Shown one piece after another: positions 2,370-21,418 of a DNA stretch of 64,000 nt (its first letter is position 1; every line of letters begins with the position of its first letter). The DNA is from Candidatus Aenigmatarchaeota archaeon (GTDB lineage Archaea; Aenigmatarchaeota; Aenigmatarchaeia; JACPZZ01), in NCBI GenBank assembly GCA_043801595.1, contig JAZDLW010000019.1, positions 1 through 64,000 of the forward strand, read 5' to 3'. The position numbers were made by a program, and so were the translations under genes. The notes beneath the pieces were generated by a model that was not told the origin of the DNA, searched no databases, and worked only from the letters and a program-made list of their open reading frames with translations.

Positions 2370-3416
2370 ATGGTCGGCATAGTAGGGTACGGCGTCTATG
2401 TTCCCAAGTTCAGAATAAAGGTTGAGGACATAGCAAAGGTGTGGAACAAGGATGCGGATTCGATCAAAAGTTCGCTAGGGATAGCCGAGAAATCCGTTGC
2501 GGGCATAGACGAGGATACTGTTACGATTTCGGTGCAGGCGGCGAGAAACGCCGTTAACCATGCAGGAATCGATCCGGTTGATATAGGCGCGATTTTTGTG
2601 GGTTCAGAGTCGCATCCGTACGCAGTCAAACCAACAGCAACGATTGTCGCAGAGGCGATTGAAGCGACGCCCGAAATGACTGCGGCCGACACCGAATTCG
2701 CATGCAAAGCCGGAACAGTTGGCATACAAATGTGCATGGGGATGGTCGGTTCTGATATGATAAAATACGGAATGGCTATAGGTTCGGACACAGCGCAAGG
2801 CATGCCGGGTGATGTGCTGGAATACACAGCGGGCGCGGGAGGCGCTGCTTTCATTGTTGGTAAAGATTCTGTTATTGCGGAAATAGAGGACACTTATTCG
2901 TACACAACAGACACGCCGGATTTCTGGAGGAGGGATTTGCAGCAATTTCCAAGGCACGGATCAAAGTTCACTGGTGAGCCGGCGTATTTCAAACATGTGA
3001 TCGCAGCCGCGAACGGCATACTCGAAAAAACGGATTCAAAAATTAATGATTTCGATTTCGTCGTTTTCCACCAGCCGAACGGCAAGTTCCCGTTGCGCGC
3101 AGCAAAAATGCTCGGCGTGCCTGTTGAAAAATTAATGCCGTCGCTTTTCGTAAACAAGATCGGCAATACGTATTCAGGCGCTTCGTTGATCGGACTCGCC
3201 GGCGTCCTTGATATCGCAAAAGCGGGACAAAAAATTCTTGTAGTTTCATACGGCTCGGGTGCAGGGTCTGACGCGTTTATAATGAAGACCACAGACCTTT
3301 TGGAGAAGAAGAGAAAGAACTCTGTCAAGGTTAGTGAATATGTTGATAAAAAAGAGTACATCGATTACTCAATATACCTGAAAAACAGGAATGCGATTGT
3401 CGGGAGCGGTGCTTGA
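2370..3416 (+). CDS. hmgB: Hydroxymethylglutaryl-CoA synthase (archaeal)
   Basis: [19 protein letters not shown] (catalytic Cys), [24 protein letters not shown]; start moved to ATG 2370. Confidence 0.95.
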
Positions 3417-3418
3417 TA

Positions 3419-4585: not shown

Positions 4586-4989
4586 AAGGTGTTGCATCTT
4601 CGTGGAGAAGGATGAAGTATAGGTACAATCTTTACTCCACGAAATGCGAGAATTGCAGCGGAATATTCTTCCCGCCGAGGATAATATGTCCGAGATGTAG
4701 AAGGGCGGGAAAGATGATTGAACTGAAATTGAGCGGGCGAGGAAAGATTGTTTCGTTCACAACAATACACTCCCCGCCAGAAGGATACACTTTCCAGACC
4801 CCATACCTGCTTGCCATAATAAAGCTGGAGGAAGGGCCGATGTTAACCACACAGGTTGTTGAAACCGAAGAAAGCGCAATAAGGATAGGAACACAGGTTG
4901 AAATGGTTTTCAGAAAGCTTATCGACCATGGGGAAGAAAATCTTATATCATACGGCTACAAGTTCCGCGTTGCGGACAAGCAGGTTTAA
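4582..4989 (+). CDS. DUF35 Zn-ribbon/OB-fold scaffold of the thiolase-HMGCS complex
   Basis: CENC...CPRC Zn ribbon followed by OB fold; overlaps thiolase stop. Confidence 0.9.
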   Translation: MKGVASSWRRMKYRYNLYSTKCENCSGIFFPPRIICPRCRRAGKMIELKLSGRGKIVSFTTIHSPPEGYTFQTPYLLAIIKLEEGPMLTTQVVETEESAIRIGTQVEMVFRKLIDHGEENLISYGYKFRVADKQV

Positions 4990-4991
4990 CC

Positions 4992-6269
4992 ATGATTTCA
5001 GCCAAAGAAGTTTTCGAGAAATTAAAGGCCGGCGAAATACGCTTGCACGAAATTGAGAATTTCGTTTTCAACGCGCTCGGCAGCGGTGCGGACTGGAAGG
5101 AAGCCTGCGCGATTGCGGCCGAAGCGCGCATACTGTTTATAGAAAATTTAAAGGGGAAAAAATTCCCTGGCATAAGGTCGCATTACATAAGCACAGGCGA
5201 CAAGGCGAAGATCGTCGGGATAGAAAATCAGATCGGCGGGGCTACGATTCCTCTTGGCATAGGCGGACCGCTTGAAATACGCGGTGCTTACGCAAAAGGT
5301 TTGTTTTACTTGACGCTGGCGACAAACGAAGCTGCGTTGATAGCAGGACTGTCAAGAGGGGCGAAGGCGATAAACGAAAGCGGCGGCGTAAAAACCACAG
5401 TAACGAGGGACTGGATGACGCGCGCGCCCGTCCTTGATTTGGGATCCATTGAAGATGCGAAAAAATTAATTGATGCGATAAACGACGACAAGGAATTTTA
5501 CGGAAAAATAAAATCCGCGGCCGAAGCGGAAACGAAAGTTTCAAAACTCGGGTTCATAGAGACGTTCCAGATCGGAAAAAAAGTATGGCTGCGATTTGCG
5601 TTCGAAACGGGCGACAGCATGGGAATGAACTCTGTGACGAAATATTCGGCCAATGCGATCAAAGAAGTCAAGAAAAAGTTTGAAAGCGCGAAGTTAATCG
5701 CGCTTTCGGGAAACATGTGCTGCGACAAGAAATCCAACCACACGAACATAATTCTCGGGCGCGGAAAAGCTGTCGAGGCTGAAACGACCATTAAGAAAGA
5801 TGTTCTCAAAAAAATTTACAACACTGATGCGAGGACGATAGAGAAAATAAACTTCACAAAGAATTATCAGGGTTCCGCATTGGCAGGAACGCTTGGCGGG
5901 TTCAATGCAAATGCCGCGAATACGGTTGCTGCAATATTCCTTGCAACAGGCCAGGATGCTGCTCAAATCGTTGAATCGTCGTCCTGTTTTGTGACAGCAG
6001 AAGATAATAATGGTGACTTGTATTTTTCAATTTCCATGCCGAACCTTGAGGTTGCGACAATAGGTGGCGGAACGAATTTCGCAACAGCGAAAGAATGTCT
6101 TGAGATACTCGACTGCGCCGGGGCTGGAAAAAATCCGGGCGACAACTCCAAAAAACTTGCGGAAATAATCGCGGCGGCCGTGCTTGCACAAGAACTTAAT
6201 TTGCTGGGTGCGCTTTCAAACGATTACGAACTCGCAGAATCGCACATAAGATTGGCGAGAGGGAAATGA
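4992..6269 (+). CDS. hmgA: HMG-CoA reductase, class I (NADPH)
   Basis: ENQIG, LATNEAAL, GDSMGMN, LSGNMCCDKK, TGQDAAQ, C-terminal catalytic His (ESHIRL). Confidence 0.93.
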   Translation: MISAKEVFEKLKAGEIRLHEIENFVFNALGSGADWKEACAIAAEARILFIENLKGKKFPGIRSHYISTGDKAKIVGIENQIGGATIPLGIGGPLEIRGAYAKGLFYLTLATNEAALIAGLSRGAKAINESGGVKTTVTRDWMTRAPVLDLGSIEDAKKLIDAINDDKEFYGKIKSAAEAETKVSKLGFIETFQIGKKVWLRFAFETGDSMGMNSVTKYSANAIKEVKKKFESAKLIALSGNMCCDKKSNHTNIILGRGKAVEAETTIKKDVLKKIYNTDARTIEKINFTKNYQGSALAGTLGGFNANAANTVAAIFLATGQDAAQIVESSSCFVTAEDNNGDLYFSISMPNLEVATIGGGTNFATAKECLEILDCAGAGKNPGDNSKKLAEIIAAAVLAQELNLLGALSNDYELAESHIRLARGK

Positions 6270-7993: not shown

Positions 7994-8422
7994 ATGGATA
8001 CAAGCCAGATACTGAAAAAATACCAGATTATAGCAGTAATCGGATGCTCGACGGATGTTACAAAAGATTCGAATATTGTTCCAGCGTATATGCTTTCGAA
8101 AGGATTCCGTATAATACCGATAAACCCCAACGGAGGAACGATTCTCGGGCAAAAATCCTACAAATCCATGGAAGGGATCCCCTACGACCGTAAATCGCGA
8201 ATAGAGATCGTAAACATATTCCGTCCTTCTTCCGAGCTGTTGCCGATAGTCCACTCGATTGTCAAAGACAAAAAAGCCATGCCTTCGTTGAAAGTCATAT
8301 GGGCACAGCTTGGCATACAGGATGAGGCGGCGAAACAACTGGCAGAACAGAACGGGTTTACTTTTGTCCAAAACCGCTGCATGATGAAGGATTACAAGGT
8401 TAAATTTTCCGTTTCCATTTGA
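7994..8422 (+). CDS. CoA-binding protein (YccU-like)
   Basis: IAVIGCS, IPINP, IVNIFRPS, VIWAQLGI, VQNRC. Confidence 0.88.
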   Translation: MDTSQILKKYQIIAVIGCSTDVTKDSNIVPAYMLSKGFRIIPINPNGGTILGQKSYKSMEGIPYDRKSRIEIVNIFRPSSELLPIVHSIVKDKKAMPSLKVIWAQLGIQDEAAKQLAEQNGFTFVQNRCMMKDYKVKFSVSI

Positions 8423-9779
8423 CGCCTGCGGGTGTGTCTTCGAGAATTATTCCCATGCTTTCAAGCTTGTTCCTTATCTCGTCGGATTTTTTGTAGTCCT
8501 TGTCTTTTCTCGCCTTTTCGCGTTCATTGACAAGTTTTTTAATGTTTTCGGATACAACAATCTTCGAATAATTTTCAAGTACCCCCAAAAGGCCGGCAAG
8601 TTCGAAAATAGTCGTTCTTAAGAAGTTTTTCGAGTCTGCCCCGATTTTATCGTTTTCAGACGTGTATTTGTTCACCAGATCAACCAGTTCAAACAGCGAT
8701 GATATCGCCTCAGGCGTGTTGAAGTCGTCGTCCATACTCTCAACGAAGTCGTCTTTAATTTTTTGGACCGCTTCATCGATTTCGCTATCGCTCCCGCCTT
8801 TTTCTTCGATGTTATCTAGGGTCGCGACAGCATTGTACAATGTGCCGAGCGTGTTCTTTGTCCGCACAAGGCTTTCTTCGTGAAAATCCACCTGGCTCCT
8901 GTAGTGGGACATTGCAAAGAACAATCTCAATACCTCCGCGTTGTATTTTTTCAACGCATCCTTTATTGTTATGAAGTTTCCGAGCGATTTCGACATCTTT
9001 TCTCCGTTGACCAGAAGAAAACCGGAGTGAGTCCATATTTTTACCATCGGCTTCTTTCCGGACATGGATTCCATCTGCGCGATCTCAGCCTCATGATGTG
9101 GGAATATCAGGTCTATCGCGCCGCCGTGCAAGTCGTACTGCGAACCCAGGTATTTTTCGGCTATGGCGGTGTCTTCTATATGCCAGCCTGGCCTTCCGAA
9201 ACCGAAAGGCGAATCCCAGCCAAGCTCGGATTTATCGCGTTTTTTCCACAAAGAGAAGTCCTGCTGGTTCTTTTTTGTCGTGTCTGGTTCGATTCGATGC
9301 TTGCTCAATTCCTCCGTGTTCTGGTGCGATAATTTTCCGTAATCAGCGAATTTCGTTATGTCAAAGTAGACGCCTGTCTTAGTTTCGTATGCGACCTCTT
9401 TTTCGATCATTCTTCGTATCTGGCTTATGATTTCGTTTATGTGCTCTGATGCCCGTGCGAACTTATCGATACTGCTGATACGAAGCGATGTCATGTCGTC
9501 CATGAACGATTTTTCAAACTGCGTTGCGATGTCTTTCGGATTTTTTCCGGTCTCCTTTGCACGGTTTATTATCTTGTCGTCGACGTCGGTTATATTCATC
9601 AAAAAGAAAAGATCGTATCCGCGGTAGCGGAGATATTTTGCGATTATGTCGTACGCGGTGTAAGTCCGTGCGTGTCCTAAGTGCGAGTTATCGTAAACGG
9701 TCGGGCCGCACACAAACATCTTTACGTCCGTTTTCGTCAATTCTTCCTTTTTCTTTGTTAGCGTATTGAATATTCTCAT
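8400..9779 (-). CDS. cysS: Cysteine--tRNA ligase
   Basis: CGPTVYD, HLGH, GRPGWHIE, DLIFPHHE, KMSKS. Confidence 0.97.
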   Translation of the reverse strand: MRIFNTLTKKKEELTKTDVKMFVCGPTVYDNSHLGHARTYTAYDIIAKYLRYRGYDLFFLMNITDVDDKIINRAKETGKNPKDIATQFEKSFMDDMTSLRISSIDKFARASEHINEIISQIRRMIEKEVAYETKTGVYFDITKFADYGKLSHQNTEELSKHRIEPDTTKKNQQDFSLWKKRDKSELGWDSPFGFGRPGWHIEDTAIAEKYLGSQYDLHGGAIDLIFPHHEAEIAQMESMSGKKPMVKIWTHSGFLLVNGEKMSKSLGNFITIKDALKKYNAEVLRLFFAMSHYRSQVDFHEESLVRTKNTLGTLYNAVATLDNIEEKGGSDSEIDEAVQKIKDDFVESMDDDFNTPEAISSLFELVDLVNKYTSENDKIGADSKNFLRTTIFELAGLLGVLENYSKIVVSENIKKLVNEREKARKDKDYKKSDEIRNKLESMGIILEDTPAGVKWKRKI

Positions 9780-10177
9780 ATCAAACCCCTTTCAATAAGG
9801 AACGGAAGTATTTTTTGTTTCGTTATGGGCGTTACTATTTCAACGGGCGCAGCCTCAAGATTCTCGCGGCTAAACCATTTCAGCTCTTCTATGTCTTTTG
9901 TCGTGTGCGGTTCGTTTTTCAGTTCGCCCGTATAAGCGCGTATATGCAAAGACATTTCGCCGGTCTCGTATGAGAATTCGTTCATAAATTTCAACGTCTC
10001 TTCCTTGGCAATTGTTCCGACCTCTTCAATCAATTCGCGCTGCAGGCATTGGAGATCATTTTCGCCTTCTTCAAACTTACCGCCAATTGTCAGGAACCTA
10101 TTGTCATTCGGTTCACGCGAAAGCAGAAGTTTCTTGTTTCTTATCAGAAACAACGCACACTTGTTGATCGTTCTCAT
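9776..10177 (-). CDS. NUDIX hydrolase
   Basis: GGKFEEGENDLQCLQRELIEEVG Nudix box. Confidence 0.85.
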   Translation of the reverse strand: MRTINKCALFLIRNKKLLLSREPNDNRFLTIGGKFEEGENDLQCLQRELIEEVGTIAKEETLKFMNEFSYETGEMSLHIRAYTGELKNEPHTTKDIEELKWFSRENLEAAPVEIVTPITKQKILPFLIERGLI

Positions 10178-10355
10178 AAAAATACTATTAGAATTTTGTA
10201 GATTAAAGCATTAAATCCGTTATTGCGAAGTTCCGGTTAAACAAATAGCCCGAATGTCGAATAGATGATAACGTCGATAAAACGGCCGGACGGTTTTTTA
10301 TAGCTGCAAAGCTTCCAGTTTTTTCGAAAATGCAGGCGTGAAAAATTAGACGGGA

Positions 10356-11513
10356 TCATTTTTTGTGCTTGAATACCGATGTTAGCGGTTCATTTAATAT
10401 GAATTCGTGCATCCTGTTTCGGGCGTCAGCCAGTTTTTCCTGATGTTCCAATAAAAGCTTCTTGACTTTGGGCGTCACTTCTTTTTTGTGTTCGCCGCAC
10501 ATAAGCTGTCCTGATCTGCATGCCTTGTAAACGGAATCGTCATTCAAAAAATTGTTCGCGTCCAATCCGTAGATCGGGCAGATTTCAGGTATTCCGCCCC
10601 TTTCGCGCTGTAGATCTGCGATCGCACTTCCGCCGTTGTACGATGTTTTTATCAGTTTCTCCGCCCTTTCCGGTGTGTCTGTAAGAAATATCGCAGACTC
10701 GGGCCTTGATGTGGACATTTTTCCCTTGCCGTCAAGACCGAACAAAAATTTAGTGCAAACTTCCGCCGGAGGAACCATACCTTTTTTCTTGGCAATGTCC
10801 CGCGCAAGCTGTATGTACGGGTGTTGGTCAATGCCCACCGGGATTACGGTTGGCTGCGTGCCGCCGAATTCTTCCAATTGCGGCAGAAGGATCTGTGCAA
10901 GTTGTACGGCGCCCCTGTAAAAAACGACACCAATGTTTTGGCTTTCATCAACGCCGAAAACACCGTTTATTTTGCCTACTGTCAATTCGCGGGATATATC
11001 AATCGCAAGGTTATAGATATTCGTGTAATCGGAGTCCACGAAAATCCTGGTTTTTCCCGGTTTGAAACCCATTGCTATTATGCTTGGTATTACGTCTTCG
11101 TATGCGATTCGTCTTGATTCTCCAAGCGAGTCCTTTTTGCGCACCAGATACGTTTCATCGTTCGTAACAGGTATGTAAACTGTAGCTCCCTGCTCCTGAA
11201 ACCATAGCAATTCGTCGAAGATCGCCTTATGACCGAGGTGCAGCGGGCCGGACGGGTTAAGGCCTGATACGGCAGCCCACCTGTCGCCGTTTTCCATTGC
11301 TGGCGCAACCGATTCCAAATCCTTGTGCGCATATGTCACGCCCATTTTCATGAATCTGCTCGGAGACGGATGATAGGAAGCGAACCTTGAGACACTTTTC
11401 AGTCCGAGTTCTTCCATTTTTTGTTCGTAGAATCGGCGTTCTTTTTCCCCCAACGCAAGTTTTATGCTGTAATCCTTTTCCACCATTTCGAGCATTTCTT
11501 TAGAGTATGCCAC
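10356..11513 (-). CDS. trpS: Tryptophan--tRNA ligase (divergent TrpRS, paralogue B)
   Basis: SGLNPSGPLHLGH, PVGIDQHPY, KMSTS, CRSGQLMCGEHK; QLAQILLPQ replaces the usual QAADILxPQ. Confidence 0.8.
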   Translation of the reverse strand: MAYSKEMLEMVEKDYSIKLALGEKERRFYEQKMEELGLKSVSRFASYHPSPSRFMKMGVTYAHKDLESVAPAMENGDRWAAVSGLNPSGPLHLGHKAIFDELLWFQEQGATVYIPVTNDETYLVRKKDSLGESRRIAYEDVIPSIIAMGFKPGKTRIFVDSDYTNIYNLAIDISRELTVGKINGVFGVDESQNIGVVFYRGAVQLAQILLPQLEEFGGTQPTVIPVGIDQHPYIQLARDIAKKKGMVPPAEVCTKFLFGLDGKGKMSTSRPESAIFLTDTPERAEKLIKTSYNGGSAIADLQRERGGIPEICPIYGLDANNFLNDDSVYKACRSGQLMCGEHKKEVTPKVKKLLLEHQEKLADARNRMHEFILNEPLTSVFKHKK

Positions 11514-11517
11514 AATA

Positions 11518-12528
11518 TCACCTTAATACCAAAATAATATTTTTTCCCAAACTATCAGCAACAGTTCTTCGCAACTCCTCCGGAGTTATCTTACCTTCGT
11601 AATAAAGTTCAGGAATTTCCAGAGGAGAGGATTCGCCTTTCAATCTTTTTCCCGCCATTTCGGATATTATTCCGATATCAAGAACGGGATTCGGAAGTGA
11701 CGGATTTTTTGAGATGAATGAACGTTCAATAAGCGCACGCGCCTCTTCGGGAGTTGTCCTTCCGGCGATAATACGGTTCGCGTGCAGTCTTTTGCTGTCC
11801 GCCTTGTACGCGGTTATTCCGAACTCTTCCTCCTCGTGCGAAAAGAAATAACTCCAGCCAAGCCCAACCGGGAATGTCGGGGATAAAAATACGGATAAGA
11901 TGCGCGGATAGCCGAGTTTGTCAGCAACTCTTCTGCTTACCGAATCGTAAAGGTCTTCTCTCGGCGGACCGACTTTAATATCGAAATTCAGAATCGTGTT
12001 TATTTCGTCGAACGAGTACCCGAAGCCCCTCTGTTTTTCGATTTCCGTTTTGCTGGGCGGTACTGTTTTTTCCACCATTTCCATAAGAGACGGGTCGGCG
12101 TTGCAAATTTTACTTACCTGTGCCAATCTTTTCTGGAATTCCGGAGAGTCGATATATTCGCTCATCTTAATCACTTTAAGACCTGTCCCGTAAACTTCGT
12201 TCACAGTCTTTACAAAGTCTGCCCTCTCTTTCCCGAGTTGCATGTAACGATATTTTAAATTATCAGATACGTTCCTGCACGCCGCGCTATCCGCAACCAA
12301 TATTGTCGGCTCAGTTTTCCATCCGTTGTCGCGCAGACTCTTTCCGAGTTCTGAAACAAAGAAGTAATACTTCATGCTGTCGATTGTATTTCCGTAGTCA
12401 TCGTAGGTTTCCCCGTAAAATATTCTTGTCGCGTCCGGTTTTCTGGAATCAGCCCTCGCTCTAATTTCTTCGGTATCGGGGTGTTCGATTACCAGCCCTC
12501 TCTGAGAGAATAATTTGCTAATTTCCAT
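11518..12528 (-). CDS. TyrRS-fold protein lacking HIGH motif (class Ic aaRS-like / CDPS-like), paralogue 2
   Basis: By-eye alignment to archaeal TyrRS: ILVAD, MSEYIDSPEF, YSFDEINTI, DIKVGPPRE, YKADSK, TPEEARALI, ITPEELRRTVADSL; clearly paralogous to 12538-13485. Confidence 0.6.
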   Translation of the reverse strand: MEISKLFSQRGLVIEHPDTEEIRARADSRKPDATRIFYGETYDDYGNTIDSMKYYFFVSELGKSLRDNGWKTEPTILVADSAACRNVSDNLKYRYMQLGKERADFVKTVNEVYGTGLKVIKMSEYIDSPEFQKRLAQVSKICNADPSLMEMVEKTVPPSKTEIEKQRGFGYSFDEINTILNFDIKVGPPREDLYDSVSRRVADKLGYPRILSVFLSPTFPVGLGWSYFFSHEEEEFGITAYKADSKRLHANRIIAGRTTPEEARALIERSFISKNPSLPNPVLDIGIISEMAGKRLKGESSPLEIPELYYEGKITPEELRRTVADSLGKNIILVLR

Positions 12529-12537
12529 GATCTCAGC

Positions 12538-13485
12538 TTACGCGAAGAAATTGGCTACGTAAAGATTTAAGTAGCTGAGCGCCATATTTTTAAGTTTTTT
12601 GTCGGACATGCCATCTGTTGAGAACGGACGGATGTCGTTTTCCACTCTTTGCCTTGCCAAGTCGGCTGTTACCAGAACGTGTTCCACGGCTTTTCTGTTC
12701 TTAGAAGATCTAATCAGATACCTTGCCTTGTCGCCGTCAAACGGATCAAGACATATTCTTCTTTCCTGCATACCTTTGCTGCTTAGCTTGTACGGCAGAA
12801 GACCGAATGGAATTTCTTCTTCGGTGTCCCCCAGCGGCTGTATTTCCGTGAGATGAATGGCCGCGTATTTTTTCAAACCCGCCGCGGGTCCGAACCTTCT
12901 TGCTGGTTTGTCGTACATCGCCTCGTATGGGGGACCGACTTTGATGTCCGTATCCCACGCGGCAATTGATGCTAGCTCTTCCAACGGGTAATTGATAGAA
13001 TCTTTATTGTTTCTTCTATCTTCAGGCACGGCCATTGAAACAAGCGATGCGAATCGCGGATTGGTTTCCATTTCCTGTTTCAACTTATTTAATGTCTGCT
13101 GATATTCCGGTGTTTCACGCAATGCGGATGAGAATTCCATGTGAATCTTTCCTTTATATGCAAAGTTTATTCTGTCCAAAAAATTCCAGCGCCTGATTCC
13201 GTAAATACACGCTTCATCGTCGGTCATGTCCTTGTTTATATCGGTCAGAAAGTGGTCTGCGAGAAGCATGCCTGCGTTGGATTCTACGCCTCGCTCAGCC
13301 AGAATATCCTGAAAGTTCATCATAAACAGGCTATATTTCATCATATCGAACGGCTGGCCCGCGCGGTCGTATGTCTGCCCCATCATTATTTGGACAGGAT
13401 TTTTATTTCTTTGTATGGTTTTGAGTTCTTCCATACCTAGTACATCCGCAACAAGTTGCGGTTGTTTGAGATATTCCAATAGCAT
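12538..13485 (-). CDS. TyrRS-fold protein lacking HIGH motif (class Ic aaRS-like / CDPS-like), paralogue 1
   Basis: GQTYD, LLADHFLTDIN (cf. TyrRS LLADLHAYLN), YPLEELASI (cf. YPIMQVNDI), DIKVGPPYE (cf. DVAVGGMEQ), YKLSSKG (cf. KMSSSKG). Confidence 0.6.
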   Translation of the reverse strand: MLLEYLKQPQLVADVLGMEELKTIQRNKNPVQIMMGQTYDRAGQPFDMMKYSLFMMNFQDILAERGVESNAGMLLADHFLTDINKDMTDDEACIYGIRRWNFLDRINFAYKGKIHMEFSSALRETPEYQQTLNKLKQEMETNPRFASLVSMAVPEDRRNNKDSINYPLEELASIAAWDTDIKVGPPYEAMYDKPARRFGPAAGLKKYAAIHLTEIQPLGDTEEEIPFGLLPYKLSSKGMQERRICLDPFDGDKARYLIRSSKNRKAVEHVLVTADLARQRVENDIRPFSTDGMSDKKLKNMALSYLNLYVANFFA

Positions 13486-13488
13486 AGC

Positions 13489-14997
13489 TCACACCATCAA
13501 ATCGTTTTTCAATTCATTTACAATGTCGTACCATTTCGTCCTGTTCCTTTTTGATTCATCCACAATCGCCCGCGAAGGCAGCGGCGTCCAGAATGAAGGT
13601 TGAGATGTTTTTCTTCCCTGCGCACGCGCAAGCGCGTATTCGTAGACTTCTGTGCGCCTGTCGTAGTGTGAAAGCAGCTCATCCTTCAAATGTTGCTGGA
13701 CGATGTCACAGTTGTACTGACCGTTTTTTTCACATTCGCCAACAAGATAGTGACTCATTATTCTTGATCTTTCTTCCGGCGTTTTAGCAGCTTTCAGCGA
13801 ATCGTTCACAGAAGCTGGCGGGTTTTCACAAATTTCCCTGAAATTTATTTTGTTATAGCGGTTGAATTCACGCAGATACCTTACCATGTCCAACGCGCAA
13901 AATTCCGTGGCTTCTGTTGTGTTTGCGATTGAATACGATAGTTTTTCCGTTTCGGTTTTTAACCTGTCGGCGAGCGAAAGTTTTTGAGGGCCGGCGCCAA
14001 CGAACAACGTGCTATCGGGCTGGCTCGAACTGGCCTTGTTTCCGGTCAGACCTCTCATGTGCGGTATGTAAAATGCGGATGGCACGGTTTGCAATCCTGC
14101 AACAGGATTTACGCTTGACAGCGAATTTTTTATCATCTCAAGCGTCATAGTCATATGGCCGTCTTGGTCAGGGCCGCTGACCATGAATGAATGGTAGTTC
14201 GCGAAATCAGGGTGTTGCGGCAGAATTATGTCTGCGGCTTGCGATGCCCCGGCAAACAAGAACGGAAAGTTTTCCGCCAGCTTTTCAAATTTGTAAGTGT
14301 CTATTGCGAAATCAAAATTAATCGTAGCTATCAAACCTGCGGCCATTTCACTTGCCCTTTTTTCTTCTGATTGCAGATACACGTGTGCGGCGTCCAAGTT
14401 TATTCCATTCGCGCCCCAATCGAGCAGGTTATCGGCAGCCCAGTATTCGTATCTTTTTCTGCGCGATAACGAAGGATCGGATTCCATCAATTTTTTTTCT
14501 GTGCCCGCTTCCACATCGGCGACAGGGATGAATACCTGAGCGCCGTTTCTTTGAAAGTAAACTATCGTGGATGCGGTAAGCTTGTGCCCGAAGTGGACAG
14601 CGCCGCTCGGTTTGAAGCCGGATGCTATTCCCATGGTCTTTTCATTATTCAGCGCGTCTACCAATCCTGCGCCATTTCTCTGCCTGATTGCGCGCTGCGA
14701 CACTATGGGAAGTCCGCTGTCAAATTTTTCAAGCTCTTCGTACAATCCTGTCGCTGCCGGCTCCCCTTCTTCTGTGAGGTACCGTGATTCGTAACCAGAC
14801 GGTCCGCCGCTTTGGAGCTGCTTAAAGATTATGTCGTAGTTTTTTGTCCTAATTCTTCGTAGATCACCGTTTTCATCATCAGGAATTTTTGTCAGTTTAC
14901 CTTCAGGCGGTGTTACCCATTTTCCACCCTTTTTGTAATACAATCCTGTGGGTATGTTATCGAAAGAAACAGCATCGTCTTTTCCAGAGTTTTCCAT
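13489..14997 (-). CDS. TrpRS-like protein (paralogue A) with N-terminal extension and atypical C-terminus
   Basis: SGFKPSGAVHFGH, FIPVADVEA, QAADIILPQ, SGPDQDGH, GNKASSS (degenerate KMSKS). Confidence 0.75.
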   Translation of the reverse strand: MENSGKDDAVSFDNIPTGLYYKKGGKWVTPPEGKLTKIPDDENGDLRRIRTKNYDIIFKQLQSGGPSGYESRYLTEEGEPAATGLYEELEKFDSGLPIVSQRAIRQRNGAGLVDALNNEKTMGIASGFKPSGAVHFGHKLTASTIVYFQRNGAQVFIPVADVEAGTEKKLMESDPSLSRRKRYEYWAADNLLDWGANGINLDAAHVYLQSEEKRASEMAAGLIATINFDFAIDTYKFEKLAENFPFLFAGASQAADIILPQHPDFANYHSFMVSGPDQDGHMTMTLEMIKNSLSSVNPVAGLQTVPSAFYIPHMRGLTGNKASSSQPDSTLFVGAGPQKLSLADRLKTETEKLSYSIANTTEATEFCALDMVRYLREFNRYNKINFREICENPPASVNDSLKAAKTPEERSRIMSHYLVGECEKNGQYNCDIVQQHLKDELLSHYDRRTEVYEYALARAQGRKTSQPSFWTPLPSRAIVDESKRNRTKWYDIVNELKNDLMV

Positions 14998-15194
14998 GTA
15001 AACTCCAACTATAACTATTCGTGAATCGCAAGAGATTTAAGGTGCACGCATTCCGGCAATGTTTAAATAGGCGCGAAATTCTAATTAGTTAAGGTAATCG
15101 GTGATGCCGTACCAATGGACGCTCAGTTTGGGATAGACAACGGTTCTGTTATTTCTATCAAGATCAAAAAAATCGAATTTACGGGAAGAGAGTT

Positions 15195-16274
15195 ATGAAT
15201 ATCGAAAATATTGTCCGAAAATCTATCATCGACATGGGCGTAAAGGAATATGCACCGGATAAACAGGAAAAGACGCACAAATTTGATTTGTCGCTGAATA
15301 TAAACCCGTTCGGAGTTTCGGACAGGGTAATGGATAAGATACGCTCGATTTCACCGCCTGTAGTAAACAACTATTACGCTGAAAATCAGGATTTGAAAAT
15401 TGAAATATCGAATTACGTTGGCGTGAAACCGGAACAAGTTTTATTGGGCGACGGCTGTGACGGCTGCATAGAGATGATTGCACACACGTTCATTGAAAAT
15501 GGGGACGAGGTGTTAATACCTGTTCCTACGTTCCATCGATACGAGTTTCACACAGATCTTATGGGCGGGACGCCTGTGTTTTGCGAGATGAATGAAAATT
15601 TCGAGATAGATGCTGGAAAACTTCTGGAAAAGGCTACGGACAAAACGAAGATAATATTCCTCTGCGATCCCAATAACCCCACGGGTCTTGCGATAGACGA
15701 CACAATAAAGGAGAATATAATCAGAAGATTCCACGGAATCGTAGTAATAGACGAAGCCCTTGCCGACACCGCCGGGATAAACGGTTCGAAACTCGTGGAC
15801 AAGCATGACAATCTTATAGTCGTACGCTCATTTTCCAAGACTTTTGGCATAGCATCACTGAGAGTAGGATACATCATATCCAATGAAAAAATCGTTCGGG
15901 AGGTAAAGAAGACATCGTCGCCGTTCAAGGTCAACGGTTTGGCGCAGGAAGCTGCGCTTGAAGCGCTGCGTGACAAGGATTACATCAGGAAATCCAAGGA
16001 GTTTATAGACAAAGAAAAGAATTTTTTGTTCGACAGTCTTAAAACAATTGGTATGAAGTTTACCGATACTAAGACCACAAATTTCCTTCTCGACATCACG
16101 CCAACAGGACTCTCGACGTCTGAATTCGTTGATAGGCTGAAAGAAAAAAACGTAATAGTCACAAACGCAACCGTTTTCCGGGTTTCCGAAGATAAGTTTG
16201 TCAGGGTGTGCATTAGCGACCATGAGAGCAATGCCAAGTTCATAGATGTGATACGGGAGATCTGTGGCGATTGA
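15195..16274 (+). CDS. PLP-dependent aminotransferase, histidinol-phosphate/aromatic (HisC-like)
   Basis: LSLNINPFG, CDPNNPTG, IDEA, RSFSKTFGIASLRVGY (PLP lysine). Confidence 0.88.
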   Translation: MNIENIVRKSIIDMGVKEYAPDKQEKTHKFDLSLNINPFGVSDRVMDKIRSISPPVVNNYYAENQDLKIEISNYVGVKPEQVLLGDGCDGCIEMIAHTFIENGDEVLIPVPTFHRYEFHTDLMGGTPVFCEMNENFEIDAGKLLEKATDKTKIIFLCDPNNPTGLAIDDTIKENIIRRFHGIVVIDEALADTAGINGSKLVDKHDNLIVVRSFSKTFGIASLRVGYIISNEKIVREVKKTSSPFKVNGLAQEAALEALRDKDYIRKSKEFIDKEKNFLFDSLKTIGMKFTDTKTTNFLLDITPTGLSTSEFVDRLKEKNVIVTNATVFRVSEDKFVRVCISDHESNAKFIDVIREICGD

Positions 16275-16319
16275 GTGCAAACGCTTTAATAATCTTTGTT
16301 TCAATACCTTTCAGGTACA

Positions 16320-17012
16320 ATGCCACAACTTTCTGATCTTCGCGTGAAATTGGACCAGATGACCGGGAGAATAACCAGCAAACTCAAAGACAGGTCAAGG
16401 TTTCCGTTGAATACGCCTGTTTATGTGCCGGATGCGATCCCGATAGCAGGTAGAAGTGGCGTATCGCTTTTTGAGTTTGCTATTGAAGGACTGGAAAGGT
16501 ATCATGCTTCGTTGGGCAGGTACAATTATCCGGACCAGTTTCCATTGCTGAGGAATGAAGAGCGTTCAACAGTGTATAGACACGTGCCTCCGGCGGACGT
16601 GAGCGCAGTAAGCATAAGCATAGGAAGTGACATGGTAAATTTCTACCGCGATTTTCTAAAGAACCTTTGCACAGATCATAGCGAGGATCCTATATCGTTC
16701 GGAGAAACCGCTTACTGTGATGCAGACCTTCTTGAATTAACTCACGAAAGAATAAATCTTGGAAGATATGTCGCAGAATCAAAATTACAGAGAGAGCCGT
16801 CTGTAAGAGATTTTGTCGGCGATGAGAAATTGCTTACCCCGAAGTTGAGGGATCTTGGCAGGGAGGAACAGGTCGTATCAAAGGCGAAAAATATTGCCGG
16901 CCAGTATGAACTTTCACAGGATGTAGCGGAAAAATACATGCGATGGATTATTTCAGAAACGATCAAGGTCGAGGTCGAATATCTGCAAAAAAAATTCCAG
17001 CCTGTCGGCTGA
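16320..17012 (+). CDS. Chorismate mutase, eukaryote-like AroQ-beta (Aro7-type)
   Basis: LSDLRVKL, RSRFPLN, HASLGRYNYPDQFP, RINLGRYVAESK, WIISETIKVEVEYL parallel the yeast/plant chorismate mutase motifs. Confidence 0.8.
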   Translation: MPQLSDLRVKLDQMTGRITSKLKDRSRFPLNTPVYVPDAIPIAGRSGVSLFEFAIEGLERYHASLGRYNYPDQFPLLRNEERSTVYRHVPPADVSAVSISIGSDMVNFYRDFLKNLCTDHSEDPISFGETAYCDADLLELTHERINLGRYVAESKLQREPSVRDFVGDEKLLTPKLRDLGREEQVVSKAKNIAGQYELSQDVAEKYMRWIISETIKVEVEYLQKKFQPVG

Positions 17013-17169
17013 TGTTCTGGTTTTTAACTGACAAAAAGCTCCATTCAAAACTGCTTGACGTAGCGTCTGCGAAAAAATTTAACATCGAAACCAATGATAT
17101 GTTAAGCCGTTACACCTTTTGCACGAATCGATTCTGTTGTTTTTATTTCTGGTTGTGCAATAAAATCAT

Positions 17170-17787
17170 ATGGGCGGGCCCGAAACGACTAAGCAGAGTT
17201 ATGACAAGTCGGCATCCTTATGGGCAGACAACCATTGGACACACAACCAAGAAAAAGATTTGGGTCTAATTCCGATTCTGAAAAAATTTGTTGAAATAAT
17301 CGGTAATAGGGGATCGGTATTGGATGCGGGTTGCGGTCCTGGAAGGGACACCAAGTTTTTGCTCGAGTGTGGGATAAAAACAATAGGTATAGATTTTTCC
17401 GACGGTATGCTGGAAGAAGCAAAAAAAAGAGTTCCCAACGGTGATTTTAGGAAAATGGATATGAGAGTTCTCGACTTCGAAGATAACGCATTTGAAGGCG
17501 TATGGGCGTGTGCGTCGTTGCTGCATTTTCCGAAAAATGAAATTTCAAAATCCCTGAAGGAATTTGGCAGGGTATTAAAACCGAACGGAATTTTGTGCGC
17601 GCTTGTAAAAGAAGGAACAGGGGAAGGGATAGAAACAGAGAAATACGGTCCCAGATTTTTTGCTTATTATCAGAAGGAAGAATTCGAAAATAAAGTAAAG
17701 GAAAGCGGTTTTGAAGTGGTCGATTCAGGGATCAACAAAGGAGAAAAGTGGAACTGGATATGGGTATTCGCAAAGCCAGACAAGTAA
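17170..17787 (+). CDS. Class I SAM-dependent methyltransferase
   Basis: VLDAGCGPGRD, GIDFS, VWACASLLH, LKPNG. Confidence 0.9.
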   Translation: MGGPETTKQSYDKSASLWADNHWTHNQEKDLGLIPILKKFVEIIGNRGSVLDAGCGPGRDTKFLLECGIKTIGIDFSDGMLEEAKKRVPNGDFRKMDMRVLDFEDNAFEGVWACASLLHFPKNEISKSLKEFGRVLKPNGILCALVKEGTGEGIETEKYGPRFFAYYQKEEFENKVKESGFEVVDSGINKGEKWNWIWVFAKPDK

Positions 17788-17809
17788 TTTCCGGCGTAGT
17801 TAAAATTAA

Positions 17810-17968
17810 AGCTCGGAGGGAGAGTCGAACTCCCCTTTGACGCTTTCTGCCTCTTTTGATCAAACTTTTTCAAAACAACGAAAACAATCATGTTTTCGTG
17901 CACAGGAAATATTATGTTTCCTGTGAGTTTGACTGCAGGCGCCCACATAGCCGATCTGTCATCCGAGC
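17810..17968 (-). tRNA. tRNA-Cys(GCA) with 88-nt intron at 37/38 (17845-17932)
   Basis: GCTCGGA...TCCGAGCT; GGCGC-CTGCAG|intron|A-GCGTC; CTGC/GCAG central helix with AAA bulge; spliced length 71 nt. Confidence 0.9.
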
Positions 17969-18865
17969 TCAATAGTATGTGTTCATGTACCTGTCCGCAC
18001 TATCTGGCAGGACTGTCACAACAGTGCCGGATTTGATTTTCTTTGCAATCTTTAATGACGCAACAACATTGGCACCGGAGGAAATTCCTACGAACAACCC
18101 CTCTTCCTCGGAGAGTCTTGCGGCCATCGTTATCGCATCCTTATCTTTGACTTTGATGGTTTTATCTATTAAATTAATTCTATCCTCTACCAGCTTAGGT
18201 ATAAACCCCTCCCCGATACCTTCGATACGATGCATTCCGGGCTTTCCTCCTGTTAATACTGCGGAATTGAAAGGTTCGACAGCCACTATTTGCGTATCCG
18301 GCGCTTTCTTCCTGAGAATCTCTGCGATTCCCATCAGAGTGCCGCCGGTTCCGACTCCTGCGACGAACGCGTCGACGTGCCCCACTTCACGCAATATTTC
18401 GTTGGCAGTTTCGTGATGCGCATTGACATTGTCGACGTTCTCGAACTGGTTCAATAAAACCATACCATTGTTCGCTAATAGTTTTGCCTTTTCAATTGTT
18501 CCGTACACACCGAGTTTTTTCGGCGTTAGGACGACTTTTGCGCCGTAGTGCTTCATTATTCTTGCCCTTTCTTTGCTCGCGAACTCGGGCATGACAGCAA
18601 CGAATTTGTAACCCTTTATTGCGCATATCATAGCGAATGCTATGCCCGTGTTCCCTGTGGTCGGCTCAACGATTGTCATTCCCGGACGGAGGATCCCCTT
18701 TCTCTCAGCGGATTCTATCATGTATTTTACAATCCTGTCTTTAACAGAACCGCTTGGATTCAGGAATTCGGCTTTGGCGTACAGTTTCACACCTTTGAGT
18801 TTTGTTATCTTCTTTATTCTTACTATTGGCGTGTTTCCAATCCATTTCAAAATATTGACAGGCAT
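17969..18865 (-). CDS. cysK: Cysteine synthase (O-acetylserine sulfhydrylase)
   Basis: IGNTP, NPSGSVKDR, PTTGNTG, GVGTGGT, GISSGA; start moved to ATG 18865 after GGTGAT. Confidence 0.92.
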   Translation of the reverse strand: MPVNILKWIGNTPIVRIKKITKLKGVKLYAKAEFLNPSGSVKDRIVKYMIESAERKGILRPGMTIVEPTTGNTGIAFAMICAIKGYKFVAVMPEFASKERARIMKHYGAKVVLTPKKLGVYGTIEKAKLLANNGMVLLNQFENVDNVNAHHETANEILREVGHVDAFVAGVGTGGTLMGIAEILRKKAPDTQIVAVEPFNSAVLTGGKPGMHRIEGIGEGFIPKLVEDRINLIDKTIKVKDKDAITMAARLSEEEGLFVGISSGANVVASLKIAKKIKSGTVVTVLPDSADRYMNTYY

Positions 18866-18884
18866 AATATCACCACTATTCATA

Positions 18885-19079
18885 TTAGTCACTCCAGAAA
18901 AATATCTTTCTCCTTGTGTCTGACAGGACTCTGACATCCTTGATAAGGCCGTCACCTCTGAGAATTCCGAGATTGTACCTCAAAGTTCTTTCGGGCAATC
19001 CTGTTTCAATTGCGAGTTCTTGTATATTTCTTGGTCTAGAAAGAGCGTGCTTTATTTTCACCAAGGCAAAGGCGTTCAC
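18885..19079 (-). CDS. Small winged-helix HTH transcription regulator
   Basis: IQELAIETGLPERTLRYNLGIL HTH; GGTGA upstream; co-oriented with cysK. Confidence 0.75.
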   Translation of the reverse strand: MNAFALVKIKHALSRPRNIQELAIETGLPERTLRYNLGILRGDGLIKDVRVLSDTRRKIFFWSD

Positions 19080-19185
19080 CCATTTGATTCACCTTTGATG
19101 ATAACACAATTATGCTTTAATACGTTTTGGATAGCGGCAATGTTGTTTTTGTTCGGTCCTTTTGTATTTGAATTAATCTTTACTT

Positions 19186-19608
19186 TTATTCCGAAATTAT
19201 GAATTTACCCCTTAGATAGCATTCGACAAGATTTTTTGTTGCGGGGAACAGGTTTTTCGGAATTTTGTCCTCCGAAAACCATTCCCATTTTTTCCAATCT
19301 TCAGGAATTAGTAATTTTGGTTCGCCGTCGATCTTTGCAACTGCGCCTATTCCTATGTAGTGGTTTCCTAATGCGTAGTTGGCGTTTACGCAGATTATGT
19401 TGTAAACAGTTGCATTGCAACCGAACTCTTCCTTGATGTTTCTTCGTAGAGCATCTCCAATTTTTTCCCCAAAATTTATCTCTCTTCCAGGAACGCCCCA
19501 AACAGGTTTTCCCCCATAATTCCATTTATCTGTAAGAAGGCCGAGCAGGAATTTCCCATCTTTTACTACCAGAATATCCAAGCTGACTTTTGGTTCTTTG
19601 CTATCCAT
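19186..19608 (-). CDS. NUDIX hydrolase (degenerate Nudix box)
   Basis: From MDSKEPKV: WGVPGREINFGEKIGDALRRNIKEEFG; EPKLLIPEDWKKWEWF. Confidence 0.8.
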   Translation of the reverse strand: MDSKEPKVSLDILVVKDGKFLLGLLTDKWNYGGKPVWGVPGREINFGEKIGDALRRNIKEEFGCNATVYNIICVNANYALGNHYIGIGAVAKIDGEPKLLIPEDWKKWEWFSEDKIPKNLFPATKNLVECYLRGKFIISE

Positions 19609-19647
19609 CGTTGAACCATTCCTTTTACCGTTTCTGTGTGTCTTGTA

Positions 19648-19721
19648 TGCGGCGGCCGGGATTTGAACCCGGGTTTTGAACTTGGCAAGCTCATGTCTTA
19701 GCCAGGCTGGACCACCGCCGC
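19648..19721 (-). tRNA. tRNA-Gly(GCC)
   Basis: GCGGCGG...CCGCCGCA; TGAGC-TTGCCAA-GTTCA. Confidence 0.95.
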
Positions 19722-19854
19722 AAACGCAAACAGACGCACGGAAACTGAAACAGACATTGTCTGTTTCTAACTGCTTATGCGTCAGCAGACTTCGAGGAAA
19801 CCTGCGATTTCCTTTCTTAACTATTCTTCCTATTTGCGTTGTTGTTTTTATTAG

Positions 19855-20013
19855 CGTCGAGGGCGGGATTTGAACCCGCGCTGGCTTCGTTGACCGAACC
19901 AGATTTCGACTGAAGCATATCCTATGATATGCTTCGGTTTGCGTCTGGTTCAAGTTCCTTAACGCCAACAGGTTTAGCAAACCTGCGCCCTAACCTGGCT
20001 AGGCGACCTCGAC
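19855..20013 (-). tRNA. tRNA-Ser(GCT) with ~71-nt intron in the variable arm (approx. 19887-19957)
   Basis: GTCGAGG...CCTCGACG; intact CAGGT-TTGCTAA-ACCTG anticodon arm; insert between TGGC and GCCA of the variable stem; spliced length ~88 nt. Confidence 0.85.
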
Positions 20014-20131
20014 TTGTCGAATCAGAGCTGTTTTGATCAAAGAGCGCTTAATAGCGTCTTTGGCTATCGAAAAGCTTTATATTTATACGAATAAATATCC
20101 TTTTAGATAAAATAGATAAGGTGGAAAACAA

Positions 20132-20434
20132 GTGCCTATTAATGTAAAAGATATTTCTGAGGTATTCGGGAAGGATGTTTTTACTGACAAGGGTGCGTAC
20201 TGCGGTAAAATATCAGACCTTGAGTTTGATCTCACAAAATACAAGATCAGGGCGATCGTTATAGAATCTGTTAAGGGTTCTTATTTGTCGCAAATTGTAG
20301 GCGGCAAGAGGGGCGTGATTGTTCCGTTCCCGATGGTGCAGGCAGTGGGTGATGTTGTCGTAATCAAACATATAACAGCTCCTACAGGCGATATGACAGA
20401 AGACGTACCTGCCGAAACAACGACGCCAGAGTAA
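20132..20434 (+). CDS. PRC-barrel domain protein
   Basis: GKDVFTDKGAYCGKISDL...VPFPMVQAVGDVVVIK. Confidence 0.85.
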   Translation: MPINVKDISEVFGKDVFTDKGAYCGKISDLEFDLTKYKIRAIVIESVKGSYLSQIVGGKRGVIVPFPMVQAVGDVVVIKHITAPTGDMTEDVPAETTTPE

Positions 20435-20464
20435 ATTTTTCTGTATTGAAGTCCATTCTTATTC

Positions 20465-21418
20465 ATGGATAAGCTGTTGAAAGGTTCTTTATTCGTAACT
20501 TCCGCTGCGATCATCTGGGGAGGCACGCCGATAATCGAAAAGGCGGCACTTAACATTGTAAATCCGATGGTGCTTGGCGCGTGGCGTTATTTCCTTGCCG
20601 GACTTGTGCTGTTCGTTTATCTGCGCATTAAAAAGGTTAACATTGACATCGGCAGTATCGCAGGCAAACAACTTTTCATCGCATCGCTTTTCAACTCGAC
20701 CGCTGTCCCGATTTTCTTTTATTACGGTTTGTCCCTTACGGACCCTGTTACAACGGCTTCGATAGGCAATACAGGCGTTTTGTGGGTCGCGTTACTGGGA
20801 ACGGCTTTCCTAAAAGAAAAAATAAAAACGGACGAATTGGCAGGGACGCTTCTTATACTTTTTGGCGTGTACGCTATGCTGAACGGATTCAGTTTCGAGT
20901 CGTCTATCGGCGCGGTTATGGTTGCGGTGGCAGCGCTCTCGGGCGCAATTGCAATGATAATTGAAAGAAAATTGCTTCATCGATTGAACCCTTTGGTCGT
21001 TACGCTTTACGACAGGGCCGTAGGCGGTTCGATTTCCCTTATTGCCGCGCTGTTCTTGTTCGGATCAAAGGCGGTGTTAATCGGCATTATCGGATGGGCG
21101 TATCTGATATTCCTCGCAATCTTCGGCGCTTTGCTGCCTGCCGTGCTTTTTTTCAACGGGCTGAAATTGATAGAAGCTGAACGATCCGCGGCGATACTTT
21201 CCACTGCGCCATTGTTCACACTTGTTTTTACCCTATTATTTATGAACGTCCCAATAACCCAAAGCCAGGTTTCGGGTGCACTGCTTATTTTCGTTGGCGT
21301 AATCATGCTGTCGATGTCGAGAAAAATTCTTTTTGTGACGAGGAATTACGTGTCGTTGTTGGTGCGGTATGAGAAGGACGGGGTACGAAGGATTTTGGAT
21401 AAGATGCGTTCTTTGTAA
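20465..21418 (+). CDS. EamA/DMT family transporter
   Basis: About 10 hydrophobic helices in two repeats; IWG and FLKEK motifs. Confidence 0.88.
   Translation: MDKLLKGSLFVTSAAIIWGGTPIIEKAALNIVNPMVLGAWRYFLAGLVLFVYLRIKKVNIDIGSIAGKQLFIASLFNSTAVPIFFYYGLSLTDPVTTASIGNTGVLWVALLGTAFLKEKIKTDELAGTLLILFGVYAMLNGFSFESSIGAVMVAVAALSGAIAMIIERKLLHRLNPLVVTLYDRAVGGSISLIAALFLFGSKAVLIGIIGWAYLIFLAIFGALLPAVLFFNGLKLIEAERSAAILSTAPLFTLVFTLLFMNVPITQSQVSGALLIFVGVIMLSMSRKILFVTRNYVSLLVRYEKDGVRRILDKMRSL

Follow-up and report, generated by a model that had tools for sequence, protein, structure and literature searches.

Why should an operon of aminoacyl-tRNA synthetase-like genes stand back to back with an aminotransferase and a chorismate mutase? 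The question is raised by a 64,000-nucleotide stretch of DNA (hereafter the window) from a Candidatus Aenigmatarchaeota archaeon (assembly GCA_043801595.1, contig JAZDLW010000019.1, positions 1 to 64,000 of the forward strand), in which four genes for two TrpRS (tryptophanyl-tRNA synthetase) paralogues and two ORF1 proteins diverge from genes for a pyridoxal phosphate (PLP) aminotransferase, a chorismate mutase and an S-adenosylmethionine (SAM) methyltransferase. The operon is a TrpRS-A2/TrpRS-A-like/ORF1 cluster, assigned from the gene order, taxa and features described by Mukai, Reynolds, Crnkovic and Soll (2017, Life 7:8, PMC5370408), who described TrpRS-A1, A2, A-like and ORF1 and left their function open. 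In related loci the aminotransferase and the mutase are strongly tied to this cluster, yet not exclusive to it. Our best model, to which we give a probability of roughly 40%, has TrpRS-A attach an aromatic amino acid to tRNA-Trp and ORF1 hand it on to an acceptor, with the two enzymes as suppliers of the substrate. The cluster itself had already been described (PMC5370408); new here are the aminotransferase link, the empty insertion site and the mapping of the ORF1 active site, and literature searches returned no published report of a linkage of either enzyme to the cluster.

The genes of the locus are the following:
13489-14997, minus strand: W2, TrpRS-A-like, 502 aa, PF00579, first gene of the operon
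12538-13485, minus strand: U2, second ORF1 paralogue and partner of W2, 315 aa, no Pfam family
11518-12528, minus strand: U1, ORF1 partner, 336 aa, no Pfam family
10356-11513, minus strand: W1, TrpRS-A2-type archaeal TrpRS paralogue, 385 aa, PF00579
14998-15194, no strand: divergent intergenic region of 197 bp between W2 and the aminotransferase
15195-16274, plus strand: PLP aminotransferase of subfamily I-beta, 359 aa
16320-17012, plus strand: chorismate mutase of the long AroQ-beta type, 230 aa (P0256)
17170-17787, plus strand: class I SAM methyltransferase, 205 aa

Within the operon (W2-U2-U1-W1) the genes are separated by 3, 9 and 4 nt, and on the plus strand a 45-nt spacer separates the aminotransferase stop from the start codon of the mutase, an ATG at 16320. 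The divergent layout reported by the initial annotation, with its spacings of 197 bp and 45 nt, was confirmed, and so was its statement that the window holds no further his or aro genes: none was present among the 58 open reading frames (ORFs) scanned, which are the main non-overlapping ones out of 106 ORFs of at least 120 aa. Neither a tRNA nor an Rfam family was detected in the 197-bp divergent region, and a sigma-70 promoter scan, ill-suited to archaea, gave results at chance level.

Recurrence of the aminotransferase and the mutase in ORF1 loci

A 69-row alignment of U1 was used to seed a set of 100 loci, 24 from genomes and 76 from metagenomes, of which the named ones belong to Woesearchaeota, Nanoarchaeota and bacteria of the candidate phyla radiation (CPR); loci with ORF1 at least 95% identical were merged, leaving 70 groups. 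A W1 homologue was present in 90 of the 100 loci, and the remaining ten end within ~1.1 kb of the ORF1 match. With orthologue thresholds of at least 45% identity for the aminotransferase and at least 40% for the methyltransferase, homologous operons were found to adjoin an aminotransferase orthologue in 9/70 groups and a long, yeast/plant-type chorismate mutase in 11/70 (five of these at least 40% identical to the island mutase), with both enzymes together in three. Most of the linked enzymes are at most 1.4 kb away, and several mutase genes overlap the stop codon of TrpRS-A2.

As background, 351 genomes of one order were searched. ORF1 gave two strong matches, the aminotransferase orthologue occurred in two genomes, one of them beside ORF1, and a full-length long mutase in eight, a count that includes G399, flagged as unpublished and used nowhere else (G277 and G208, flagged likewise, are non-orthologues in the aminotransferase background, and G277 is also one comparison row). 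Coincidence, which the initial annotation had allowed for, was rejected for these two genes (9/70 and 11/70 groups versus 2/351 and 8/351 background genomes). Among the ORF1 genomes, the aminotransferase orthologue was present in 7/25 and adjacent to ORF1 in six, while the mutase was present in 4/24, always adjoining the operon.

Aminotransferase, mutase, peptidases and racemases might instead have been co-selected for the salvage of aromatic amino acids, working in parallel with TrpRS-A/ORF1 and passing no substrate to it. We regard such a scavenging island as unlikely. The variable accessory set is in its favour, in which both enzymes meet in so few groups and each also occurs alone, as are two of nine mutase neighbourhoods without ORF1 that have a tryptophan context of their own (the other seven are unrelated): in L152 the mutase lies within a trp operon, and in L150 (6315-9914) TrpRS, a PLP decarboxylase, a long chorismate mutase and tRNA-Trp stand in a row. 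On the other hand, the enzymes follow one particular module, W2/U2. Either enzyme was found in 15/31 groups with this module versus 2/39 without it (aminotransferase 8/31 and mutase 10/31 with W2, 1/39 each without), and in 12/18 versus 2/20 when loci of at least 8 kb were considered. Mutase genes are, in addition, often translationally coupled to TrpRS-A2, and at least two mutase subclades have been recruited. Because locus lengths are uneven and related loci are not independent, the counts should be read as minimum figures, and the association is exaggerated by the Fisher values.

Insertion of the island at tRNA-Cys

The seven genes arrived as one insertion at a tRNA-Cys gene, the 3' end of which marks the site:
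10197-17804, no strand: inserted island, approximate bounds, from the nudix-cysS promoter region to the 3' end of tRNA-Cys
17809-17969, minus strand: tRNA-Cys(GCA), intron-containing (ARAGORN, introns allowed, relaxed threshold)

The island measures ~7.6 kb. In four congeners (G003, G004, G005 and G006) the DNA matches the window over 7.1-10.2 kb (to ~10,196), and the tRNA-Cys 3' end comes ~25-140 bp further on at most, so that the site is empty in four of the five congeners searched. The fifth (G002) carries ~2.6 kb of unrelated genes there, an ABC transporter and another gene, and the tRNA-Cys site can therefore be regarded as one that takes up foreign DNA. The tRNA gene was undetected by Rfam and by ARAGORN at default settings; both its exons match those of the congeners at 88-100%. 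An 8-bp direct repeat at the insertion ends (10202 and 17805) was considered as a boundary mark and retained as a hint only, with 4 occurrences in the window versus 4.2 expected.

Congeners that lack the operon have not retained the supply genes at this position, as the empty or differently filled site shows, and a wider search of 60 relatives returned no ORF1 (the single weak match, in G055, is a housekeeping TyrRS, i.e. tyrosyl-tRNA synthetase), no mutase and no aminotransferase orthologue (best full-length matches 32%, one split match 38-39%). The host genome, small and archaeal judging from its gene content, comprises 814 kb at 86% completeness and encodes a canonical TrpRS (contig C13) and TyrRS (contig C23), both separate from the island. 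The tRNA-Cys gene lies between cysS (8400-9779) and a cysteine synthase gene (cysK, 17969-18955); the latter had no DNA match in the five congeners and so seems to have entered by a second insertion, across the tRNA from the island.

Properties of the aminotransferase and the chorismate mutase

The aminotransferase retains the PLP lysine (Lys215) and the carboxylate arginine (Arg337) and belongs to a distinct and tight orthologous group (12 rows). Annotation as HisC was rejected, since the TIGR01141 (hisC) score of 260.5 bits is below the cut-off of 276.55, the first histidinol-phosphate Arg is missing in 13/13 orthologue rows (one row being a duplicate) while most HisC-like comparison rows keep it, and HisD was not found in the 86%-complete genome. 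Aromatic amino acid aminotransferase (ArAT) has Phe at two positions where the histidinol-phosphate enzyme (HspAT) has Tyr (PMC4703992), and motif mapping onto that work places F113 and F244 of the island enzyme at the two Phe positions. By the same mapping, though, an invariant Arg115 lies in the side-chain pocket, at the Met129/Leu112 position. The motifs GDGCDGC and DEAL, the latter instead of DEAY, are further features. Judging from these residues, the protein is likely an aromatic or prephenate aminotransferase rather than HisC.

The mutase is a long helical AroQ-beta protein, with profile matches to the yeast/plant subclass at E 1e-37 to 1e-41. Its residues R8, R144, K155, E182, T214 and E218, invariant in 46/46 rows, map onto R16, R157, K168, E198, T242 and E246 of yeast chorismate mutase, the first five of which presumably have active-site roles there. 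At the positions that we take to form the Trp/Tyr effector site of the yeast enzyme, G141 is kept, S142 is replaced by E and T145 by Y. The AroQ-beta label and the role of Glu246 as an active-site residue follow PMC7762937. A second linked subclade, 25-30% identical, keeps a plant/yeast-like effector site, and in L030 an unrelated short CM_2 fusion precedes ORF1. Because of these two subclades and the CM_2 fusion, mutases were likely recruited to the cluster on more than one occasion.

Precursor supply and the methyltransferase

Chorismate synthase, 5-enolpyruvylshikimate-3-phosphate (EPSP) synthase, prephenate dehydratase (PDT), prephenate dehydrogenase (PDH), chorismate-binding enzymes and, as noted above, HisD were not found in this 86%-complete genome, by searches that were each positive in 14/14 controls. 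Across the 25 ORF1 genomes, PDH scored above the cut-off in one and PDT in two, none of them mutase carriers, and chorismate synthase occurred in 2/9 ORF1-free mutase genomes; the picture across ORF1 genomes is consistent, though these are incomplete. Since no chorismate synthase was found here or in the 24 other ORF1 genomes, which were searched together with one genome lacking ORF1, de novo precursor synthesis in the island-bearing cell is unlikely, and an outside source would have to provide chorismate or keto acids. Spontaneous loss of water and CO2 turns prephenate into phenylpyruvate and arogenate into Phe, and for this reason the mutase and the aminotransferase could yield Phe or arogenate with no further enzyme. 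That these cells have a chorismate mutase which looks intact, while a search for chorismate synthase was negative, suggests that metabolites reach them from their host.

These results bear on the proposal that the locus is a self-contained biosynthetic cluster, making an arogenate-like non-protein amino acid de novo, ligating it and methylating it. All seven genes do lie within one insertion, the invariant basic residues R115 of the aminotransferase and K129 of W2 could bind an extra carboxylate, and exporters stand beside related clusters. The chorismate pathway, however, was not found, the insertion site takes up unrelated genes in G002, and the tailoring enzyme is not conserved with the core: a methyltransferase orthologue was present in 0/70 ORF1 groups (two had matches of 26-30% only) and was not found in the five congeners. 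A 157-nt gap also precedes the gene. With no orthologue in the 70 groups, a role in tailoring was rejected for the methyltransferase, which probably just travelled along in this insertion, and we consider the self-contained cluster highly improbable. The closest homologues of the methyltransferase are 65-70% identical to it. Of the three genes whose co-occurrence with the operon had been suggested as a check, the aminotransferase and the mutase recur and the methyltransferase does not.

TrpRS paralogues and ORF1 proteins

Both TrpRS paralogues keep their ATP-binding motifs. W1, whose best match in the PDB is the A. pernix TrpRS (3a04, E 1.1e-60), retains HLGH, GIDQ and KMSTS, has QxxQ for the pocket motif QxxD, and carries C312/C332/C339/H342 where the family consensus has four Cys. 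W2 has the motifs HFGH and KASSS, an invariant K129 (GFKPSG) and Q253/D256, keeping the pocket Asp (invariants computed over 25 orthologues); insertions occur in its C-terminal domain, and its fold aligns with A. pernix TrpRS at Z 28.8, the root mean square deviation (rmsd) being 3.2 over 325 residues.

ORF1 has neither a Pfam nor an NCBIfam family. U1 and U2 are 27% identical and share the core motifs, U2 following W2 in related loci. The AlphaFold 2 model of U1, with a predicted local distance difference test (pLDDT) score of 92.8, aligns with A. pernix TyrRS over residues 1-336 (Z 24.0, rmsd 3.1, 289 aligned) and with cyclodipeptide synthases (CDPSs) at Z 11-14, so that ORF1 is, as modelled, a full-length TyrRS fold without HIGH. 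The C-terminal anticodon-type domain is kept and a Lys/Ser loop stands at the KMSKS position. The ORF1 family profile matches Mj TyrRS (E 7e-5) and AlbC (E 6e-4), with 97% probability for archaeal TyrRS.

The residues of note in U1 are G39/T41/Y171/E175, K185, E191, D195, Y241 and R252. Relative to TyrRS, the amino-group tyrosine Y151 is kept as Y171, whereas Q155 is replaced by E175, D158 by T, A167 by K185, Q173 by E191 and HIGH by TIDS. In the CDPS AlbC, G35/Y178/E182 superimpose on TyrRS G34/Y151/Q155, the aminoacyl group is borne by the nucleophile S37, and the E182Q variant lacks activity (PMC3105412). T41 of ORF1 is found at the spacing of AlbC S37 (G+2) and is invariant in 69/69 U1 orthologues and in 87% of 87 family members.

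A W1-U1 complex was predicted with a score of 0.73 against 0.00 for the best control; the mark applied is reached by 116/157 solved and 2/215 mismatched pairs, counts that hold roughly here, as our own alignment was used. Runs agree in at least 96% of contacts, with partner pLDDT of at least 87. The predicted contact joins W1 43-49 and 66-75 to U1 224-232 and 271-278, including W225, Y227, F228 and F229 (at least 90% conserved), and uses surfaces other than the helices that we take to form the usual class Ic dimer interface. U1 is accordingly described here as predicted to dock on W1. ORF1-TrpRS fusions occur in P0133 and P0158.

Some variants of the module may be listed here. Distant ORF1 relatives (P0193, P0200, P0227, P0232-P0255) include acidic proteins, one of which is named as coming from Nanohaloarchaea, and some with Gly at the Thr41 position. 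Tandem ORF1/TrpRS-A modules are found in L007, L036, L051 and L013, with up to three pairs per locus. In L188 (646-2079, minus strand), from a CPR genome, a CDPS domain is apparently fused to a solute-binding-like C-terminal half, the second domain being identified by eye.

tRNA-Trp and neighbouring genes

One intron-containing tRNA-Trp was found on contig C23 (relaxed scan). In related loci tRNA-Trp is adjacent in 6/25 (default settings), and in 0/8 of those carrying the aminotransferase; L012 has the order tRNA-Trp, ORF1, TrpRS-A2, mutase. Supply-type genes swap in beside the core, namely a tryptophanase family member and TrpB2 (both above cut-off), the binding protein of a TrpX-like ABC transporter, racemases, an N-acylamino-acid-racemase-like enolase and deacylases. 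Other neighbours are TrpE, a D-aminoacylase-like enzyme, M28 and M20 hydrolases, opine dehydrogenase, canonical TrpRS and transporters (EamA, AlaE, GlpM, MFS), and YbaK or B3/4 editing domains lie near related loci. The common theme of these neighbours is aromatic amino acid supply and quality control.

In two loci (L154 7465-9258 and L024 13215-14678) an adjacent canonical TrpRS is fused to editing-type domains, B3/4 and YbaK, respectively, a hint of mischarged tRNA-Trp. The B3/4-fused protein of L154 was tried as a TrpRS-A and rejected, as it scores as canonical TrpRS. L004 (3628-12170) carries an aminotransferase, a tryptophanase-family lyase, a weak GNAT match, and D-aminoacylase-like and N-acylamino-acid-racemase-like genes before ORF1/TrpRS-A2, a set that resembles what we take to be a route of D-to-L amino acid conversion.

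The foremost competitor of our model is a rescue of translation in Trp shortage. TrpRS-A/ORF1 would then be auxiliary tRNA-Trp synthetases of relaxed or shifted specificity, loading Trp or, failing that, Phe or Tyr from the mutase and the aminotransferase, with ORF1 as a tRNA-binding or proofreading (deacylating) subunit. In its favour, tRNA-Trp immediately precedes ORF1, or stands head to head to it, in many loci (L012 included; more loci in a relaxed scan). The loss of the pocket Asp in W1, the anticodon-type domain kept by ORF1, the Trp-supply neighbours and the absence of Trp from all 359 residues of the aminotransferase agree with it, as do the trpR-headed operons and Trp-free proteins reported in PMC5370408. 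Yet the genome has a canonical TrpRS, the invariant polar residues of ORF1 are denser than a scaffold would need, none of the eight aminotransferase loci scanned has an adjacent tRNA-Trp, and host-dependent cells should be able to obtain Phe and Tyr ready-made. We hold this rescue to be somewhat unlikely.

Proposed mechanism

In the model that we prefer, the island is a mobile TrpRS-A/ORF1 unit that brings its own aminotransferase and chorismate mutase. At the expense of ATP, each TrpRS paralogue would attach an aromatic amino acid to tRNA-Trp. The ORF1 protein that is its partner, and for which docking on the TrpRS is predicted, would then receive the aminoacyl group on Thr41 as an acyl-enzyme and hand it to an amine acceptor, forming a peptide bond. 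The mutase and the aminotransferase would provide the TrpRS-A-like module with Phe, Tyr or arogenate, formed from chorismate or aromatic keto acids that are presumably of outside origin. The residues described above are in keeping with a role of the two enzymes in aromatic amino acid supply. The suggestion that they feed Trp/TyrRS-like enzymes has accordingly gained from the recurrent linkage and the fitting residues, and has lost the self-contained de novo route attached to it.

Several observations weigh against this model. The nucleophile position of ORF1 holds Thr, not Ser, and in the most distant members Gly; the profiles of ORF1 and CDPS, compared directly, match only weakly (probability 6%, E 0.006, 3 CDPS rows), and the Pfam CDPS match to ORF1 (E 0.29) is under the cut-off. 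There is no tRNA-Trp in the island (9500-20500 scanned). Neither enzyme was found in 53/70 groups, though many loci are short; the aminotransferase orthologue lies apart from ORF1 in 2/8 genomes having it (G192 and G075), and none of the eight background genomes with a long mutase is an ORF1 genome. Because chorismate synthase was not found here and was found in 0/24 other ORF1 genomes, and neither PDT nor PDH was found in the four mutase-bearing ORF1 genomes, the mutase has no visible source of substrate. Finally, the authors of PMC5370408 favour tryptophan metabolism and coding over the synthesis of small molecules.

A bolder version, which we put forward as a doubtful prospect, would make ORF1 an undescribed class of aminoacyl-tRNA-consuming enzymes midway between TyrRS and CDPS, docked on its own TrpRS paralogue and using tRNA-Trp as a private carrier. 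Minimal DPANN and CPR symbionts would thereby assemble a peptide whose aromatic building block may be a non-protein amino acid (arogenate); an imported mutase of eukaryote type and a new prephenate aminotransferase would produce it from chorismate of the host. Should ORF1 prove to transfer aminoacyl groups, it would found a new family of tRNA-dependent enzymes and connect TyrRS structurally with CDPS; if the island misloads tRNA-Trp instead, it represents a dedicated way of reading Trp codons under starvation. The linked enzymes, the active-site map of ORF1 and the predicted docking surface now provide named residues and substrates to assay.

Other features of the window

A tRNA-like gene with a long insertion is present at 19855-20013 (minus strand; Rfam tRNA, 48.4 bits), read by relaxed ARAGORN as Ser(GCT) with an intron. 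An operon at 2346-6269 (plus strand), conserved in congeners, encodes HMG-CoA synthase, thiolase, HMG-CoA reductase and a ChsH2-like protein, so that this minimal archaeon has a portion of the mevalonate pathway. At 59415-60128 (plus strand) a 237-aa protein combines sigma-70 region 4 with the C-terminal domain of the bacterial RNA polymerase alpha subunit, in an archaeal genome.

Comparison with known systems

The closest known systems are the TrpRS-A/ORF1 clusters of DPANN archaea and CPR bacteria (PMC5370408), with which the island shares an extra archaeal-type TrpRS besides the canonical one, the pairing of each extra TrpRS with an orphan class I synthetase-like ORF, and the same taxa. The TrpRS-A-like gene with indels described there corresponds to W2 in both alignment and fold, and the CPR loci L023-L026 have the order tRNA-Trp, ORF1, TrpRS-A, bacterial TrpRS as in that paper. 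Differences concern the fourth position of the four-Cys [4Fe-4S] motif of TrpRS-A2, where W1 has His, and tRNA-Trp, described there in bacterial operons and as additional in archaea but lacking in the island. The published ORF1 model is without a Rossmann fold, whereas the model obtained here is a complete TyrRS fold. That paper raises the idea of a heterodimer and ties the cluster to tryptophan metabolism and tRNA-Trp, not to antibiotics; its main text mentions neither chorismate nor aminotransferases, while its supplements and Figure 4A may already show these neighbours.

With HisC and ArAT (PMC4703992) the island aminotransferase shares the fold and the PLP-lysine and carboxylate-arginine positions, resembling ArAT at both mapped Phe markers; it departs from them in the missing histidinol-phosphate Arg, in Arg115, DEAL and GDGCDGC, and in a genome in which no HisD was found. 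The mutase belongs to the same long helical subclass as the yeast and plant AroQ-beta enzymes (ScCM and AtCM1) and keeps the catalytic equivalents, but it is found in a prokaryote without a detected chorismate synthase and with changed effector residues.

ORF1 shares with the CDPSs (AlbC, Rv2275; PF16715) a TyrRS-derived Rossmann fold without HIGH, with G39, Y171 and E175 at the positions of AlbC G35/Y178/E182 and a hydroxyl residue at the S37 spacing. Unlike them, it has Thr for Ser, retains both a C-terminal domain and, at KMSKS, a Lys/Ser loop, resembles TyrRS (Z 24.0) more closely than CDPS (Z 11-14), and is always paired with a TrpRS paralogue of its own. An analogy with the pseudo-dimeric TyrRS of Leishmania was raised in PMC5370408, and this protein (PDB 3p0h; Z 21.9 to ORF1) likewise combines a class Ic catalytic unit with a second, altered unit. 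In the island, unlike in 3p0h, TrpRS-like and TyrRS-like units are separate chains, and their predicted contact is formed by the N-terminal region of W1 and a loop insertion of ORF1.

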